A stretch of DNA of 4,476 nt from a virus. Taxonomy: Duplodnaviria > Heunggongvirae > Uroviricota > Caudoviricetes. The DNA lies in the IMG/VR virus record IMGVR_UViG_2778261151_000012, positions 1 to 4,476 of that record, one strand, 5' to 3'. This document shows positions 1 to 4,476 of the stretch, in pieces (positions within the stretch are counted from its first letter, which is position 1; each line of letters begins with the position of its first letter). The translations under genes and the position numbers were made by a program. Under the pieces are notes generated by a model. The model was given only the letters and a program-made list of their open reading frames with translations, made no database searches and had not been told where the DNA came from.

Positions 1-74
1 AATGGGGCGGTTACATGTGGCGGGGTCAGTCGGCGGATGCGTTCCAGAACGCCGCCTGTCGCAATATTTTTCAT
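1..74 (-). CDS. ydaV: 5' end (24 codons) of a replication-protein gene in the lambda-P / DnaC-like position (YdaV-like); runs off the window
   Basis: ATG at 74..72 on minus strand, GGGGG Shine-Dalgarno about 9 nt upstream, 6 nt after the ydaU stop. Frame is open to the window edge; translation MKNIATGGVLERIRRLTPPHVTAP. Assignment rests on synteny and my recollection of the Rac YdaV N-terminus. Confidence 0.5.
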   Translation of the reverse strand, partial: MKNIATGGVLERIRRLTPPHVTAP

Positions 75-80
75 GGTTCG

Positions 81-938
81 TTACCCCCTGAAGCCTGGCG
101 GGATCGCACTGTCCGGCAACGAGACGGTGTTAACCTGTCTGAGCAACGTCTCAGGCCGAACACCTTTCGGCGCGAACAAGCCCTGGTATTCATTGGCGAT
201 GCTATGTCGAATCACCTGCTCAGGGGTAAAACCCTGCTGGCGGAATTTTTCCAGTTCCCGTATCGCCCCGTTAGCGCCCTGCTCCGTTCGAATCGGTTTA
301 CGCAATGCCTGGCGAAATTCAACCCACTCACGCCAAAGCGAGACAGAAATCCAGTTCGGCAAAACAATATCCAGAGGGTCAAACTTTTTGACACCTCGAT
401 TCCCCCGGGGGGGATTTAGGGGGGGATCTGTTTTTAGATCTTTATCTGTATCTTTATTAGTTGCCTTTGTGTTGGCATCATGTTCAAACACCACTTCAAC
501 ATCTGTTTGAACACCTGTTAAATTTCTCTCTTGTTTTGTTTGAACATCTGCTTCCTTTCTGCTTCTTCTGGCCTGAACAGATGCTTTTCCTGCGGCTGAT
601 TTTTTGGTTAATTTTTCCCTGACTGATGCCAGATCTTCCTCAATCCGAAGATGCACCCATTCCTCGCCGTTATCGCAAAAAAACTCCCGCAAGGATGGTT
701 CAACATCAGCCCATCGCTCGTTAGTCAGACGGGCAATTTTTGCCAGCCTGTTTTTGGGTATTGGCTTTCCTGTTTGCCAGTAATTGAACATCAGCAACAA
801 ATACGCACCGTGCTCCTCTGCTGACAAATGCATGGTGTCAGCCAGGTAATCAGCTATGTACAGTTGCATGTATGGTAATGCGGCCATAATTGCCCCGTAT
901 GATGCTGCCCGGTTGCTTAGAATAAGCACAAACAGCAT
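81..938 (-). CDS. ydaU: Replication initiation protein, lambda-O-position (DUF1376-type N-terminal domain, charged low-complexity linker, C-terminal domain), 285 aa
   Basis: Complete 285-aa ORF. N-terminus MAALPYMQLYIADYLADTMHLSAEEHGAYLLLMFNYWQTGKPIP is typical of the DUF1376 family. Length and position match what I recall for Rac YdaU. Stop TAA at 81-83 (complement). Confidence 0.85.
   Translation of the reverse strand: MLFVLILSNRAASYGAIMAALPYMQLYIADYLADTMHLSAEEHGAYLLLMFNYWQTGKPIPKNRLAKIARLTNERWADVEPSLREFFCDNGEEWVHLRIEEDLASVREKLTKKSAAGKASVQARRSRKEADVQTKQERNLTGVQTDVEVVFEHDANTKATNKDTDKDLKTDPPLNPPRGNRGVKKFDPLDIVLPNWISVSLWREWVEFRQALRKPIRTEQGANGAIRELEKFRQQGFTPEQVIRHSIANEYQGLFAPKGVRPETLLRQVNTVSLPDSAIPPGFRG
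481..583. repeat. Iteron-like repeat cluster inside the ydaU linker-coding region (candidate replication origin)
   Basis: TGTTCAAACA (481-490), CATCTGTTTGAACA (500-513), TGTTTGAACATCTG (537-550), CTGAACAGATG (573-583). Adjacent AT-rich segment 429-470 with two GATC sites (425-428, 437-440), then C5G7 / G7 tracts at 402-425. Confidence 0.5.
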
Positions 939-950
939 GAAAACTTTTGC

Positions 951-1373
951 TTAATGAACAATGATAGAATCGTCGGAAGACCCGCCACCGCTGAAATGCG
1001 CTTTCCGGTAAACGGCCTGGACTGCATCATCATGCGCATCAATTGCCGTACTTAACGCTTCCTGCGCCGCCAGTAATGCACGGCGTTCCAAGGTATCGAA
1101 GATGCAGAGTCGGTGACGCAGCTCGCGCGGAAGGATTGCCAGAATTGCTGGGATCAGCTTCTGAATTTTTTCTCTTTGCGTTTTCGTTTCACCTTTCAAC
1201 CAACGGTGATAGATATTCTGCTGATTATTCCAGTCCTTGCCTGGAACCAGGGGCAATTCGCCGCCCCCCTGGCGCAGATATTCTTCAGTAATTGCATTGG
1301 CTACCCATGCCTGCCCTTTTTCGGCTGCCAGGGCAAACAACACTGATTCGATGTGCTCATGCTTGATTTTCAT
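951..1373 (-). CDS. ydaT: YdaT-family protein (CII-like regulator / toxic protein of Rac-type prophages), 140 aa
   Basis: Complete ORF beginning MKIKHEHIESVLFALAAEKGQAWVANAITEEY. AAGAGG Shine-Dalgarno about 9 nt upstream. Starts 22 nt downstream of the ydaS stop, operon-like. Length matches recalled Rac YdaT. Confidence 0.9.
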   Translation of the reverse strand: MKIKHEHIESVLFALAAEKGQAWVANAITEEYLRQGGGELPLVPGKDWNNQQNIYHRWLKGETKTQREKIQKLIPAILAILPRELRHRLCIFDTLERRALLAAQEALSTAIDAHDDAVQAVYRKAHFSGGGSSDDSIIVH

Positions 1374-1395
1374 GAATCATTTGCCTCTTGATGTT

Positions 1396-1692
1396 TCAGG
1401 TATGATCAAATGAGGATTTGTTACTGTCATTTAGTTGCTTCACTGACATATTCTGCGAACAACATGCCGAACGTCGTAAATATGACCAGTCAATATCAGG
1501 ACGAAGTTCTTCGCACAGAACCTCACCTCTTGTTGCACGTTCAATTGCTGGACATCTCTCGGCAGGCAATTGACGTACCCCTTTGATCCATTGATTTACG
1601 CTTGGAGGTGATACACCTAAAAGCCTAGCCATTGCTGATTGCCCACCGACAACAGCACAAGCTTGCTTGAATGAATAGTTCTCTTTTTTCAT
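1396..1692 (-). CDS. ydaS: Cro-like HTH regulator YdaS, 98 aa
   Basis: Complete ORF MKKENYSFKQACAVVGGQSAMARLLGVSPPSVNQWIKG with a clear helix-turn-helix (QSAMARLLGVSPPSVNQW). GGAG Shine-Dalgarno 8 nt upstream. Divergent from racR across the operator region. Confidence 0.9.
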   Translation of the reverse strand: MKKENYSFKQACAVVGGQSAMARLLGVSPPSVNQWIKGVRQLPAERCPAIERATRGEVLCEELRPDIDWSYLRRSACCSQNMSVKQLNDSNKSSFDHT

Positions 1693-1720
1693 CGAATGAA
1701 CTCCAAAAACACACAGAAAT

Positions 1721-1788
1721 ATTAGGCGACGCCTAATATAAATGTCAATAGGCTATGCCTAATGCGGCAAGGGTAGGTATTGCCTAAT
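1721..1788. promoter_or_regulatory. Divergent immunity operator region (OR-like): three 17-bp palindromic sites plus promoter elements for ydaS and racR
   Basis: Sites ATTAGGCgaCGCCTAAT (1721-1737), AATAGGCtatGCCTAAT (1747-1763) and GGTAGGTattGCCTAAT (1772-1788), centres 25-26 bp apart. Minus-strand -35 TTGACA (complement of 1743-1748) with a TAATAT-like -10 about 18 bp downstream, directed at ydaS. Confidence 0.6.
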
Positions 1789-1815
1789 GCAATGAGCATA
1801 GGAGAATATTAAGCA

Positions 1816-2292
1816 ATGCTTAGTGGTAAAGACTTAGGCCGAGCGATAGAGCAGGCCATTAACAAAAAAATCGCATCGGGATCCGTCAAATCAAAGGCGG
1901 AGGTCGCACGCCACTTCAAAGTCCAACCACCATCAATTTATGACTGGATTAAGAAAGGCTCTATAAGTAAAGATAAACTTCCAGAATTATGGCGTTTCTT
2001 TTCTGATGTTGTTGGTCCAGAGCATTGGGGGCTTAACGAATACCCCATACCAACCCCCACCAATTCAGATACAAAAAGTGAACTTTTAGATATAAACAAC
2101 CTTTATCAAGCAGCCTCTGATGAAATAAGAGCGATTGTAGCTTTCCTGTTATCTGGAAATGCTACAGAACCAGATTGGGTTGACCACGATGTTCGCGCCT
2201 ATATAGCAGCGATGGAAATGAAAGTGGGTAAGTATCTGAAAGCTCTAGAATCTGAACGGAAAAGCCAGAACATCACAAAAACTGGAACTTAA
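1816..2292 (+). CDS. racR: CI-like prophage repressor RacR, 158 aa
   Basis: Complete ORF MLSGKDLGRAIEQAINKKIASGSVKSKAEVARHFKVQPPSIYDWIKKG with an N-terminal HTH. GGAG 11 nt upstream. Divergent from the cro-like ydaS. Length matches recalled K-12 RacR. Confidence 0.9.
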   Translation: MLSGKDLGRAIEQAINKKIASGSVKSKAEVARHFKVQPPSIYDWIKKGSISKDKLPELWRFFSDVVGPEHWGLNEYPIPTPTNSDTKSELLDINNLYQAASDEIRAIVAFLLSGNATEPDWVDHDVRAYIAAMEMKVGKYLKALESERKSQNITKTGT

Positions 2293-2305
2293 ACTTATAT
2301 GGTCT

Positions 2306-2333
2306 GACGGAAAACTCCTGGATTCCGTTATTT
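2306..2333 (+). terminator. Weak hairpin plus T-rich tail after racR (possible intrinsic terminator)
   Basis: Stem ACGGAA (2307-2312) / TTCCGT (2323-2328) with a 10-nt loop, followed by TATTT. AT-rich stem, so weak. Confidence 0.3.
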
Positions 2334-2386
2334 AACCCCCCATCACTTTCTGCTGTCGCCATCACCTATTAGGTTACGCTCAAAAC

Positions 2387-2430
2387 ATTAGGCATAGCCT
2401 ATTGACAATCAATTAGGCATTACCTATAGT
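2387..2430 (+). promoter_or_regulatory. Strong sigma70-type promoter overlapped by operator-like sites (PL-like early-left promoter)
   Basis: -35 TTGACA (2402-2407), 17-bp spacer, -10 TATAGT (2425-2430). Operator-like ATTAGGCataGCCTATT (2387-2403) overlaps the -35 and TAGGCattACCTA (2414-2426) overlaps the spacer/-10. A related ACCTATTAGGT lies at 2364-2374. Confidence 0.6.
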
Positions 2431-2599
2431 TCCAGCATACCACCCACCCCGCCCCACAGAACGCAGGGCAATACTTCGAGTTACCAGGCAGTGGTCAGGG
2501 GTTAAGTAGCCAGCCCGAGGCGTATGAACATGACGGCGGGATTCAAATTTTGCAGTGCAGCAGTTAGTTCCGCCACCCGGCGTTAAGGGGAGAGATAAG

Positions 2600-2734
2600 A
2601 TGGTGCATTACGAAGTAGTTCAGTATTTGATGGATTGTTGCGGTATCACTTACAACCAGGCTGTGCAGGCTTTACGCAGCAACGACTGGGATCTCTGGCA
2701 GGCAGAAGTCGCTATACGTAGCAACAAGATGTGA
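2600..2734 (+). CDS. ydaG: Small protein YdaG, 44 aa
   Basis: ATG 2600 with GGGGAGAG Shine-Dalgarno (2587-2594). Translation MVHYEVVQYLMDCCGITYNQAVQALRSNDWDLWQAEVAIRSNKM, stop TGA 2732-2734. Below the ORF-track length cutoff; found by manual translation. Confidence 0.75.
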   Translation: MVHYEVVQYLMDCCGITYNQAVQALRSNDWDLWQAEVAIRSNKM

Positions 2735-2744
2735 GATTCGCAAA

Positions 2745-2900
2745 ATGCAAAAAATCGACCTCGGCAACAACGAATCCCTGGTGTGCGGCGTGTTCCCCAA
2801 CCAGGATGGAACGTTCACTGCCATGACGTATACCAAAAGCAAAACATTTAAAACCGAAACTGGTGCGCGCCGATGGTTGGAGAAGCACACAGTAAGCTAA
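2745..2900 (+). CDS. ydaF: Small protein YdaF (DUF1391-like), 51 aa
   Basis: ATG 2745, 10 nt after the ydaG stop. Translation MQKIDLGNNESLVCGVFPNQDGTFTAMTYTKSKTFKTETGARRWLEKHTVS, stop TAA 2898-2900. Found by manual translation. Confidence 0.75.
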   Translation: MQKIDLGNNESLVCGVFPNQDGTFTAMTYTKSKTFKTETGARRWLEKHTVS

Positions 2901-3385
2901 CGATTAAAACGTCTACTCCTGCTGTTCCAGAATAACTTCATAAAATGGGAGTATTTTTCGGTGACGAGATAATAAGAACAGTTTGCGCTATCACTCTGAT
3001 GTTGAATGATGCCCTTCCGTTCTAATTTTTTCATAACCGGGTTACGGCAAGGAGAAGTGATAATAAGATTTCCTGTTTTAAGGAAATCTTTAAATACAGC
3101 GATTTCTTTCTCAGATAAACGAAGCAATACTCGTTGCTCTGGTAGTAATGAATAATGCTTTTGAATATGTGCTCGCAATCTTGAGAAGGAAATGGCGACC
3201 ACGAAAGAAAAGGCAAAAACGATAATCTGAAAGAGCCAAGGTATTTCAGTATAAGCATTGAATGCGACAGTAAACTCTTTCGGTATCAGCCAGAGAGTGA
3301 GACCAAAAATGATAATCGTATACATAAGTCTTTCGAGTGGCTCGTTAGCAAAAAGTTTCAACAATGGAGTAAATACATCCAACAT
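2897..3385 (-). CDS. sieB: Superinfection exclusion protein B (membrane protein), 162 aa
   Basis: Translation MLDVFTPLLKLFANEPLERLMYTIIIFGLTLWLIPKEF... with hydrophobic segments. Start chosen at ATG 3385..3383 to give 162 aa, matching recalled SieB. The containing ORF extends in-frame upstream to 3508. Confidence 0.85.
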   Translation of the reverse strand: MLDVFTPLLKLFANEPLERLMYTIIIFGLTLWLIPKEFTVAFNAYTEIPWLFQIIVFAFSFVVAISFSRLRAHIQKHYSLLPEQRVLLRLSEKEIAVFKDFLKTGNLIITSPCRNPVMKKLERKGIIQHQSDSANCSYYLVTEKYSHFMKLFWNSRSRRFNR

Positions 3386-3608
3386 ATCAATAACTCTCAA
3401 CTGTAAGGGTATTGAAATGTTAACACAAGCTCTCGCTGTAGGGGTATAGCCGAGACCACCGAAGCCCGGAGGTGGTGAAATAAAACCGGGCACAACACGA
3501 AGGCGCATTTCCGATATCCATAAAGAGTCGGTCTTGTCTGTTAAATTTAAATGGTGGGAGTGCGCCTCCGGTTGTAAATAACGACATTGCTGTGTGAAGT
3601 ACCAGTTG

Positions 3609-3648
3609 GCGGCATCGGTTTAATTGCTGGCTGATGTCCGCCCTTTTT
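3609..3648 (+). terminator. Terminator-like hairpin followed by T5 on the plus strand
   Basis: GGCGGCATC (3609-3617) pairs with GATGtCCGCC (3634-3643, one bulge) around a 16-nt loop, followed by CTTTTTAA. Confidence 0.3.
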
Positions 3649-3649
3649 A

Positions 3650-3804
3650 AAGTGAATTTTGTGATGCGGTGAATGCGGCTAAGCGCACGCGGCACAGTTA
3701 AAAGTCATGTTAGTCCTTATTGGTTTGGGTGGGAAAGCCGACTGTAATTGTTAACTGGTTAACGTCACCTGGAGGCACCAGGCACCGCATCACAAAATTC
3801 ACTT
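3650..3804. repeat. Perfect 22-bp inverted repeat flanking a 111-bp spacer
   Basis: AAGTGAATTTTGTGATGCGGTG (3650-3671) is the exact reverse complement of CACCGCATCACAAAATTCACTT (3783-3804). Spacer contains GTTAAC-tg-GTTAAC (3750-3763), hairpin CCTGG-aggca-CCAGG (3768-3782) and tandem AGGCACC x2 (3773-3786). Confidence 0.9.
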
Positions 3805-3931
3805 CGGTGATGAAAGGAAAGAGAAAATGTTGAATGTAGCTATTGAAAACCAGAACGGGTGGAATTATAGTGCACCTGCACCTCATAAAACGGGTGCCGG
3901 GATTAGCACCCCGAAAGTTACTCGAGCGCAT

Positions 3932-3954
3932 AACCGCGCTGAAGCGGTTTTTTT
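3932..3954 (+). terminator. Intrinsic-terminator-like hairpin plus T7 tract upstream of the Rha-family gene
   Basis: Stem AACCGC (3932-3937) / GCGGTT (3944-3949), 6-nt loop GCTGAA, run of seven T (3948-3954). Oriented for the plus strand. Confidence 0.35.
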
Positions 3955-4120
3955 ATGCGTAATGCACAGCCACATTCAAATTATGGTGAGGCGTGCGGGG
4001 CAGCCGCAAGGCTGGCCGGGTTCTCGAGTGACCGGTAGTGCTAACCCTGTGCGTCTCACCACCCATGAGATTAGCACCTCTGCTGGTGAGTTAATTAACT
4101 TATCACTTGAGGATGTCATT

Positions 4121-4476
4121 ATGGCTACTACCCTTTCTCACCCTGACGTAACCATCGAAAATGGTCGCGCCGTCACTACTTCTATTTCGATTGCTGAGTT
4201 TTTTGGCAAGCAGCATCACCATGTTGTTCAAAAAATAGAATCCCTCGAATGTTCTGAACTATTTTTAACCAGCAACTTTTCGCGGGTTAAATTCGAACAC
4301 CGCGGCAATTCTTATAACGCCTACCAAATCACCAAAAACGGCTTCGTTTTCCTGGTGATGGGCTTCACGGGCAAAAAAGCCGCCACATTCAAGGAAGCCT
4401 ACATTGCTGAGTTCGACCGCATGGAGGCCGAACTGCGCCAGAATAACACCCCACCTGCTGACAAGATGATTCCGGG
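4121..4476 (+). CDS. Phage regulatory protein Rha family (N-terminal Rha domain); 3' end beyond window
   Basis: ATG 4121 with GAGGA Shine-Dalgarno (4109-4113) 7 nt upstream. Translation MATTLSHPDVTIENGRAVTTSISIAEFFGKQHHHVVQKIESL...YQITKNGFVFLVMGFTGKKAATFKEAYIAEFDRMEAEL matches the Rha-domain signature. Frame is open to the window end. An in-frame upstream ATG at 3827 is an alternative start. Confidence 0.8.
   Translation, partial: MATTLSHPDVTIENGRAVTTSISIAEFFGKQHHHVVQKIESLECSELFLTSNFSRVKFEHRGNSYNAYQITKNGFVFLVMGFTGKKAATFKEAYIAEFDRMEAELRQNNTPPADKMIP

Follow-up and report, generated by a model that had tools for sequence, protein, structure and literature searches.

The DNA analysed here (the window) comprises 4,476 nucleotides (nt), positions 1 to 4,476 of the IMG/VR virus record IMGVR_UViG_2778261151_000012. 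It corresponds to the immunity and replication region of an E. coli prophage of the Rac type, with sequence identity of 100% to strain FDAARGOS_497 and 97.5% to K-12 MG1655. Among its genes is ydaU, which encodes a putative replication initiator, and the part of ydaU that codes for the protein's linker carries a cluster of short repeats, an AT-rich tract and runs of C and G that together form a candidate replication origin. The helicase-loader gene, ydaV, begins 6 nt past the end of ydaU in the same operon, and Pseudomonas phages that are homologous here have the same initiator–loader gene order. In phage vB_EcoS-683R6 (a 55.7-kb genome record) the counterpart of ydaU is 98% identical and is annotated as ‘DNA replication protein O’. 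The records of K-12, phage Rac and vB_EcoS-683R6 carry no annotation of an origin. Across the ydaW–ydaV–ydaU–ydaT block of K-12, the ydaU linker holds both the sole repeat cluster and the deepest GC trough, and a search of window positions 1–1700 against Rfam gave no match, leaving an RNA explanation of the region without support.

The repeats follow the motif TGTTYRAACA, matched exactly at positions 481–490, 504–513 and 537–546. With at most one mismatch allowed, the whole window has four matches; dinucleotide shuffles average 0.83, and four are reached in 1 of 200. The copy at 481 (+ strand TGTTCAAACA) has the opposite orientation to those at 504 and 537, being their reverse complement, and a repeated peptide is no explanation for this inversion. 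The initial annotation had claimed four repeats with a TGTT(CA/TG)AACA core: three are exact and lie where it placed them, whereas the fourth (570–579) is a weak copy with three mismatches, less close to the consensus than a degenerate copy at 492–501 (TGTTGAAGTG in the sense of ydaU). Position 579, within the weak copy, is polymorphic among close alleles; the cores at 504–513 and 481–490 are invariant across 31 close Rac alleles. Counted along the sense strand of ydaU, the copies start at nt 360 (weak), 393, 426, 438 (degenerate) and 449 (inverted), corresponding to amino acids (aa) 120–153, with start-to-start steps of 33, 33, 12 and 11 bp. The contiguous array at 459–520 reads, in the same sense, AACAGGT GTTCAAAC AGAT GTTGAAG TGGT GTTTGAAC ATGAT GCCAAC ACAAAG GCAAC, and an 11-bp-phased array of GTT-N(1-2)-AAC sites, with about 6–8 units across 459–579, describes the functional unit better than four 10-mers do.

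Past the repeats in the direction of transcription come an AT-rich segment with two GATC sites (425–428 and 437–440) and then C5G7 and G7 tracts, all inside the span (402–590) given in the initial annotation. Duplex free energy averages -55.1 kcal/mol over the window (standard deviation 4.4); the 40-mer at 423–463, at -45.1 kcal/mol, is the least stable 40-mer in positions 1–1700. The tract has a GC fraction of 0.30–0.33, and together with its upstream flank (426–479) its sense strand is 54% A and 69% A+T. Beyond it, the + strand has C5 at 402–406, G7 at 407–413, ATTTA at 414–418 and G7 at 419–425, and the codons involved (four CCC plus CGG and GGG, in the stretch encoding PPLNPPRG) have a probability of about 1e-5 under local codon usage. 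A scan of the whole window on both strands for DnaA boxes (TTWTNCACA) found no match, and a scan for the integration host factor (IHF) consensus near the repeats was negative.

Table 1. Genes of the window and elements of the candidate origin in ydaU; positions are numbered from the first nucleotide of the window.
Feature	Positions	Strand	Remarks
ydaV start	1–74	-	Gene continues beyond the left window edge; annotated in RefSeq for the identical region
ydaU, putative replication initiator containing the origin	81–938	-	Open reading frame (ORF), 285 aa as annotated; RefSeq ‘YdaU family protein’
C-terminal-domain coding segment, aa about 183–285	84–392	-	Common to O-like initiators with other N-domains
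G/C-rich inverted-repeat element, sense C7-TAAAT-C7-G5 (+ strand C5G7-ATTTA-G7)	402–425	-	At the right edge of the AT tract
AT-rich tract, sense A-rich (AACTAATAAAGATACAGATAAAGATCTAAAAACAGATC), candidate unwinding region and module crossover point	425–462	-	GATC sites, low stability
Contiguous array of 11-12-bp-phased units	459–520 (sense nt 419–480)	-	Exact copies 504–513 and 481–490 (inverted); degenerate copies 492–501 and 470–476
Iteron copy, sense TGTTCAAACA	537–546	-	Exact match
Weak outlying iteron-like copy, sense TGTTCAGGCC	570–579	-	3 mismatches; 33 bp upstream of the next copy
DUF1376-coding segment, aa 22–104	627–875	-	Domain match, E = 8e-26
ydaT	951–1373	-	
ydaS	1396–1692	-	
racR	1816–2292	+	
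sieB	2897–3508	-	

The repeats lie between the DUF1376 domain (aa 22–104) and a C-terminal domain shared with other initiators (from about aa 175). An AlphaFold2 model of YdaU aa 18–131 (mean pLDDT 89.8) has a three-helix winged helix with a beta hairpin, followed by a long helix, and its structural neighbours include origin-binding proteins, with the RepA_N-type initiator 4pta among the closest; on this model, the DUF1376 domain of YdaU is predicted to be a winged-helix DNA-binding domain. In PHROG, YdaU matches primosomal and O-like replication initiation families, the C-domain matching phrog_678 (‘replication initiation O-like’). The last 75 or so residues align by phmmer with the C-terminal domain of DnaT (2ru8, E = 0.0023; 9zbt, E = 0.0088), NCBIfam gives weak hits of the C-terminus to DnaT, and the tail VNTVS-PDS-IPPGFRG is nearly identical to that of DnaT. 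This resemblance to DnaT is weak at the level of sequence: a search of the PDB with a profile of C-terminal domains did not recover DnaT, and Pfam and NCBIfam gave no family for the C-domain. The same profile search yielded TALE and PPR repeat proteins, which we rejected as spurious sums of short matches to ‘G-TPEQV-A-AS’. The C-domain would contact the helicase loader or single-stranded DNA. The product of ydaV, taken as the K-12 protein, matches the Pfam families IstB_IS21 (E = 9e-20) and Bac_DnaA ATPase (E = 9e-9) and, judged by these matches, is a DnaC/IstB-type AAA+ helicase loader. As a side observation on the annotation of ydaU, its diverged homologues all start with MAALPYMQLY, which corresponds to Met18 of the 285-aa ORF, and the first 17 annotated codons (window 887–938) may therefore be untranslated.

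The repeats belong to a wider pattern among genes of the DUF1376 family, for which we collected 160 loci from one-genome-per-species contigs and IMG/VR, plus three phage homologues. In 75 diverse DUF1376 genes, the exact core GTTSAAC occurs at 5.3 per kb in the 240-nt linker following the domain as compared with 0.76 per kb elsewhere, a sevenfold enrichment. Consecutive cores are spaced by 11, 22, 33/34, 44 or 55 bp in 40 of 44 cases (the counts by spacing being 11, 17 cases; 22, 11 cases; 33/34, 4 cases; 44, 1 case; and 55, 5 cases, with 4 longer gaps, 116 and 122), and every reading phase is represented (42, 30 and 23); neighbouring copies at 11 bp cannot be peptide repeats. Such arrays (for example, AACGACCGTTCAACGACCGTTCAACG) directly follow a conserved AGKASA..ARR motif and are carried by genes of Pseudomonas, Rahnella, Pantoea, Kluyvera, Azotobacter, Propionivibrio, Achromobacter, Bordetella and several metagenome-assembled genomes (MAGs). 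Among phages, AACGACCGTTCAACGA occurs four times in Pseudomonas phage UFJF_PfDIW6, one copy every 11 bp, and Bordetella phage IFTN6 carries three copies spaced by 22 bp. The Rac array at 459–520 aligns unit for unit with those of enterobacterial homologues (L020, L017 and L029). A divergent subfamily, recognized by NGKKGGRP after the domain, has AACCCAG sites instead, mostly at 11-bp steps, and the class of repeat is that of the nearest N-domain neighbour in 37 of 37 genes, although the second class comprises only three of them.

Constraint on this part of the gene is seen at the level of DNA. At identical residues, 31 diverged homologues use the identical codon in a fraction of 0.64 for aa 126–170, where amino acid identity is 0.25, versus 0.41 in the N-domain, where amino acid identity is 0.60. 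Homologues from other genera show such constraint at this position. The repeats are followed in 40 of the 75 genes by a short-period tract, either (GATACA)n (GATACAGAT-type) or, in Achromobacter and Bordetella, (AACCAG)n, and this includes genes from GC-rich hosts; other lineages have CCAATA-type tracts with a 7-bp period, which on account of that period are not peptide repeats. Rac has AATAAAGATACAGATAAAGATCTAAAA and then C7TAAATC7G5, matching the order of (GATACA)n-type tract and C-run element in family members with a YdaU-like C-domain. The element itself (C-run, TA, C-run, G-run) turns up again in E. coli, Achromobacter, Bordetella and three MAGs, lying in phase 0, 1 or 2, and the C-run motif is kept while the encoded peptide differs (PPLNPPRG, PPKSPTGG, PPTPRKRG). 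One Rac variant has the palindrome CCCTTCCGGAAGGG in place of the C/G runs.

Several variants of the gene and of the domain deserve mention in their own right. A group of Rac ydaU variants coding for 384–399 aa (L146–L151 and L155) has about 340 nt of extra in-frame coding sequence after sense nt 514, replacing the C/G runs; it starts with CTAACCCATCCCAAACCCTTCCCTTCCGGAAGGGAG, and Pfam gives DUF1376 alone for the protein. The ydaU gene of Shigella flexneri and of some E. coli is interrupted inside the proposed origin by insertions of about 1.3 kb, at sense nt 460–464 (L015, L016, L157) or nt 488–494 (L152), with target duplications of 5 or 7 bp, and the L015 insert has ORFs of 136 and 301 aa, as expected of an IS3-family (IS2-like) insertion sequence (IS) element. 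Some DUF1376 domains are fused to a ‘GYVYF...KIGYSKNPW’ domain or to HNH endonuclease Pfam domains (L038, L039, L041–L043; P0047, P0068, P0087 and others). Five of these fusion genes (L038, L039 and L041–L043) have no repeat array, the P-numbered proteins being known from Pfam annotations only; DUF1376 alone is therefore no predictor of an origin, and the domain is not confined to origin-containing initiators.

Natural hybrids of ydaU indicate how these parts travel. In many E. coli alleles (the L001 type), the C-terminal half from PLNPPR onward has about 87% nucleotide identity to Rac ydaU and the N-terminal half is unrelated: the N-domain matches phrog_2509, with no family in Pfam or NCBIfam, and the linker lacks GTTCAAAC and has five GTAAC/GTTAC sites (sense nt 322–409), followed by an AT-rich stretch and C5-TAAAT-C5. 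The ‘gpO homolog’ of Gifsy-2 joins a lambda-O N-domain (TIGR01610) and 6–7 lambda-type iterons (ATCCCnGAAAAnGGGGAT) to an AT tract visibly related to that of lambda and then AAAAGATCTAACCCCCTTTAATCCCCC, and its C-domain has 47% amino acid identity to that of YdaU. One C-domain is thus found with three classes of N-domain, each with repeats of its own: DUF1376 with GTTCAAAC in Rac, the phrog_2509 type with GTAAC/GTTAC, and lambda-O with ATCCCnGAAAAnGGGGAT in Gifsy-2. The converse alleles also exist, in which the Rac N-domain, repeats and AT tract (90–99% identity) are joined to other C-domains, with similarity ending at sense nt 506–514. The mosaic breakpoints fall at sense nt 497–514, at AAAGATCTAAAA...C-run, and N-domain, repeats and AT tract therefore form one exchangeable unit; the C/G runs move with the C-terminal module, not with the iterons. 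A further observation on these proteins is that the tail ...VNTVSLPDSAIPPGFRG (window 84–130), the part so like the C-terminus of host DnaT, is also present in Gifsy-2 gpO and in the L001-type initiators, and a common tail of this kind hints at a shared host contact.

We conclude, with a probability of roughly 0.8, that the replication origin of the Rac-type prophage is the sequence at window positions 402–579, within the segment of ydaU that codes for the linker of the initiator. The layout is best described as lambda-style, with an initiator-domain class and a binding-site class of its own. Lambda-ori-like architecture had been proposed in the initial annotation, and position, order of elements, loader gene, DNA-level constraint and co-variation of repeats with the N-domain all agree with it. 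The comparative evidence for this origin is strong, whereas the statistics of the Rac repeats alone are marginal.

Several results weigh against an origin at this place. Permutation of synonymous codons that keeps the YdaU protein gives the Rac repeat cluster P values of about 0.05 and 0.07 (two statistics). Among the 31 close alleles there are 9.8 variable sites per 100 nt in the origin region, 6.0 in the N-domain and 12.5 in the C-domain, although diversity is too low for this comparison to say much, and selection may be relaxed in a cryptic prophage. The Rac copies escaped a 15-nt matrix made from the GTTSAAC sites of homologues below 60% identity, with 1808 of 5000 codon permutations reaching the cluster score; the matrix misses them because the Rac cores have a 2-nt centre (GTTCAAAC, GTTTGAAC). 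Closer enterobacterial homologues mix both core forms at matching positions, and Rac keeps its phasing (33, 33, 12 and 11) with 2-nt-centre cores rather than with the GTTSAAC of the family. In BLASTP, YdaU and lambda O show no pairwise similarity (E of 1 or more), and the Rac repeats are unrelated in sequence to the lambda iterons (ATCCCTCAAAACGAGGGA), so Rac is analogous to lambda in layout and not a sequence-level member of the lambda O family. Rac has also been described as replication-defective (PMC11014345), and in some strains the origin may thus be weak or in decay. Lastly, published primers named after the Rac origin, oriJ, lie in ydaV (PMC3945230).

Could the repeats and the AT and C/G tracts be by-products of a charged low-complexity linker (VQT, DTDKD and PPxNPP motifs), without a function as DNA? 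The four direct Rac copies do share one reading frame and encode S/D/G-V-Q/E (SVQA, DVQT, GVQT, DVEV), C runs and G runs encode Pro and Gly in any frame and so always yield a PPxP..GG peptide, and both the marginal codon permutation of Rac alone and the lack of unusual conservation among close alleles are what such an explanation would lead one to expect. It does not account for the exact copy that is inverted, for homologue cores at multiples of 11 bp in all three phases or tracts of 7-bp period in some lineages, for codon identity above that of the conserved domain despite far lower amino acid identity, or for a C-run motif that is kept as its peptide changes and whose Rac codons are so improbable; we therefore consider it very unlikely. 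Somewhat less unlikely, though still improbable, is a functional DNA site that is no origin, namely autoregulatory or roadblock sites for YdaU or another phage regulator, or linker DNA kept for the exchange of N- and C-modules. Iteron-binding initiators such as plasmid Rep proteins commonly autoregulate too, the conserved AAAGATCTAAAA...CCCCC segment is precisely where the mosaic junctions cluster, and it is common to three otherwise unrelated initiator classes. Yet the full set of origin features is present (phased sites, a strand-asymmetric tract of low stability, a position in the initiator gene and a loader downstream), homology to Gifsy-2 ties the segment to genuine iterons of the lambda type and to an AT tract like that of lambda, and the replication gene block offers no other origin candidate. 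Recombination junctions located at the origin have, moreover, reportedly been described in lambda/phi80/82 hybrid O genes (Furth and colleagues, 1978).

There remains the relation to oriJ, the origin of the Rac prophage, which is said to have been defined genetically (by Diaz and Pritchard in the late 1970s, and by Potrykus et al. in 2000). In the literature searched, which did not extend to the original oriJ mapping papers, we found nothing on a sequence-level mapping of oriJ, on Rac iterons or on DUF1376 in replication. According to one study (PMC3945230), Rac has an active origin, oriJ, and the primers called oriJ in that study define a 155-bp amplicon in K-12 ydaV (L005 1163–1317), about 260–420 bp past the ydaU stop codon and about 0.7 kb from the repeats. 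A functional oriJ elsewhere, for example inside ydaV, with the ydaU repeats as a decayed relic, is to our minds the least probable of the alternatives. These primers speak for it, as do the reported replication defect, the departure of the Rac sites from the family consensus and the IS elements that interrupt the region in some strains; against this, an amplicon at that distance does equally well for probing copy number, none of the 31 alleles varies in the two central cores, and ydaU is 98% identical in the 55.7-kb phage genome record. We rejected the ydaV location suggested by the primers, the amplicon being 50–57% GC and having no repeats, AT trough or origin-like features. The origin proposed in ydaU shares with oriJ the prophage and the replication gene block, is the only origin-like sequence in that block and, to judge from sequence and gene block, is probably the sequence basis of oriJ.

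From this anatomy we infer a possible course of initiation. Once RacR repression is lifted, the ydaS–ydaT–ydaU–ydaV operon would be transcribed through the origin, which transcription may itself activate, and the winged-helix (DUF1376) N-domain of YdaU would bind the near-palindromic GTT-N(1-2)-AAC array. As the spacings are at or near multiples of 11 bp, most sites should face one side of the helix, and the resulting nucleoprotein complex could destabilize the adjoining AT tract at 425–462. The G/C inverted repeat at 402–425 might then bound the bubble or take a non-B structure, and the C-domain of YdaU (O-like, with its DnaT-like tail) would recruit host DnaB by way of the DnaC-like YdaV. 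The C/G-run element may be a structural DNA signal (a cruciform, or an i-motif/G-quadruplex, given G7-ATTTA-G7 on the Rac + strand), and it could mark both a helicase-loading or unwinding boundary and a crossover point for swapping specificity modules between initiator classes.

An origin inside an initiator gene is textbook lambda biology, and the less expected parts here are the family-wide architecture and the conserved C/G-run junction. The region offers a base-pair-level candidate for oriJ, an origin known genetically for about 45 years, and bears on the induction, excision and claimed replication deficiency of Rac. It also gives DUF1376, a domain listed as of unknown function and distributed among prophages of enterobacteria, Pseudomonas, Acinetobacter, Bordetella, Achromobacter and many others, a concrete role and predicted DNA sites, and the hybrid alleles reveal the places at which specificity and loader-contact modules are exchanged in phage initiators. 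We tentatively suggest, as a possibility on the doubtful side of even, that DUF1376/YdaU initiators define a distinct and widespread class of phage origin, undescribed at the sequence level, with phased GTTSAAC (or AACCCAG) sites, a short-period strand-asymmetric tract and, in some lineages, a C/G-run element.

Beyond the replication genes, three other parts of the window carry recognizable signals. The racR–ydaS intergenic region (1723–1790) has three TAGGC-N5-GCCTAAT repeats at 25-26-bp steps, and two more, inverted, lie just downstream of racR (2387–2427); a perfect 22-nt inverted match with TTGACA pairs 1743–1764 with 2386–2407. These repeats resemble sets of RacR operators on either side of racR, arranged in the manner of OR/OL. 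Further to the right, two Rfam matches above the gathering score occur on the + strand, isrK at 3878–3954 (68.5 bits) and C4 antisense RNA at 3979–4066 (78.6 bits), with an ORF from about 4131, just downstream of the C4 match, that continues beyond the right edge of the window; this part resembles an immI (c4–antirepressor) module of the P1/P7 type. The isrK match is preceded by a perfect inverted repeat of 22 nt (AAGTGAATTTTGTGATGCGGTG / CACCGCATCACAAAATTCACTT, at 3650–3671 and 3783–3804), whose arms are separated by 111 nt.

Three known systems invite comparison with the proposed Rac origin and its initiator. DnaT (primosomal protein I) is alike in its C-terminal domain, as aligned above with the end of YdaU, but the rest of YdaU is unrelated to it and Pfam reports no DnaT domain on YdaU. 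Iteron plasmid origins (the pPS10, R6K and F RepE types, and staphylococcal RepA_N) share with Rac a winged-helix initiator, modelled in the case of Rac, phased direct and inverted repeats and an adjoining AT-rich tract. They differ in that Rac has neither DnaA box nor IHF consensus near its repeats, places its origin inside the coding sequence of the initiator, and has an initiator with an O-like/DnaT-like C-domain and a dedicated DnaC-like partner. The origin of lambda (with its equivalents in phi80, 82, P22 and Gifsy-2) differs from that of Rac in its N-domain (phage_O_Nterm, in contrast to DUF1376), in its binding sites (18-19-bp iterons at 20-24-bp steps, as compared with 7-8 bp GTT-N(1-2)-AAC cores at 11-bp multiples) and in its loader (lambda P-like, as compared with DnaC/IstB-like), and the right-hand inverted repeat of Rac is made of homopolymer runs of C and G. 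In both, however, the origin lies in the linker-coding part between an N-terminal DNA-binding domain and a C-terminal domain, near-palindromic repeats are followed by an A-rich tract of low stability, an inverted repeat and a loader gene, and the type of repeat moves with the N-domain in natural hybrids. In the comparison of layouts called for in the initial annotation, the lambda record has four iterons annotated at O nt 349–433 (aa 117–145), then an A-rich tract and a 12+12 palindrome, and Rac has its repeats at aa 120–153, then its AT tract and C/G inverted repeat, in the same order along transcription and at nearly the same codons.

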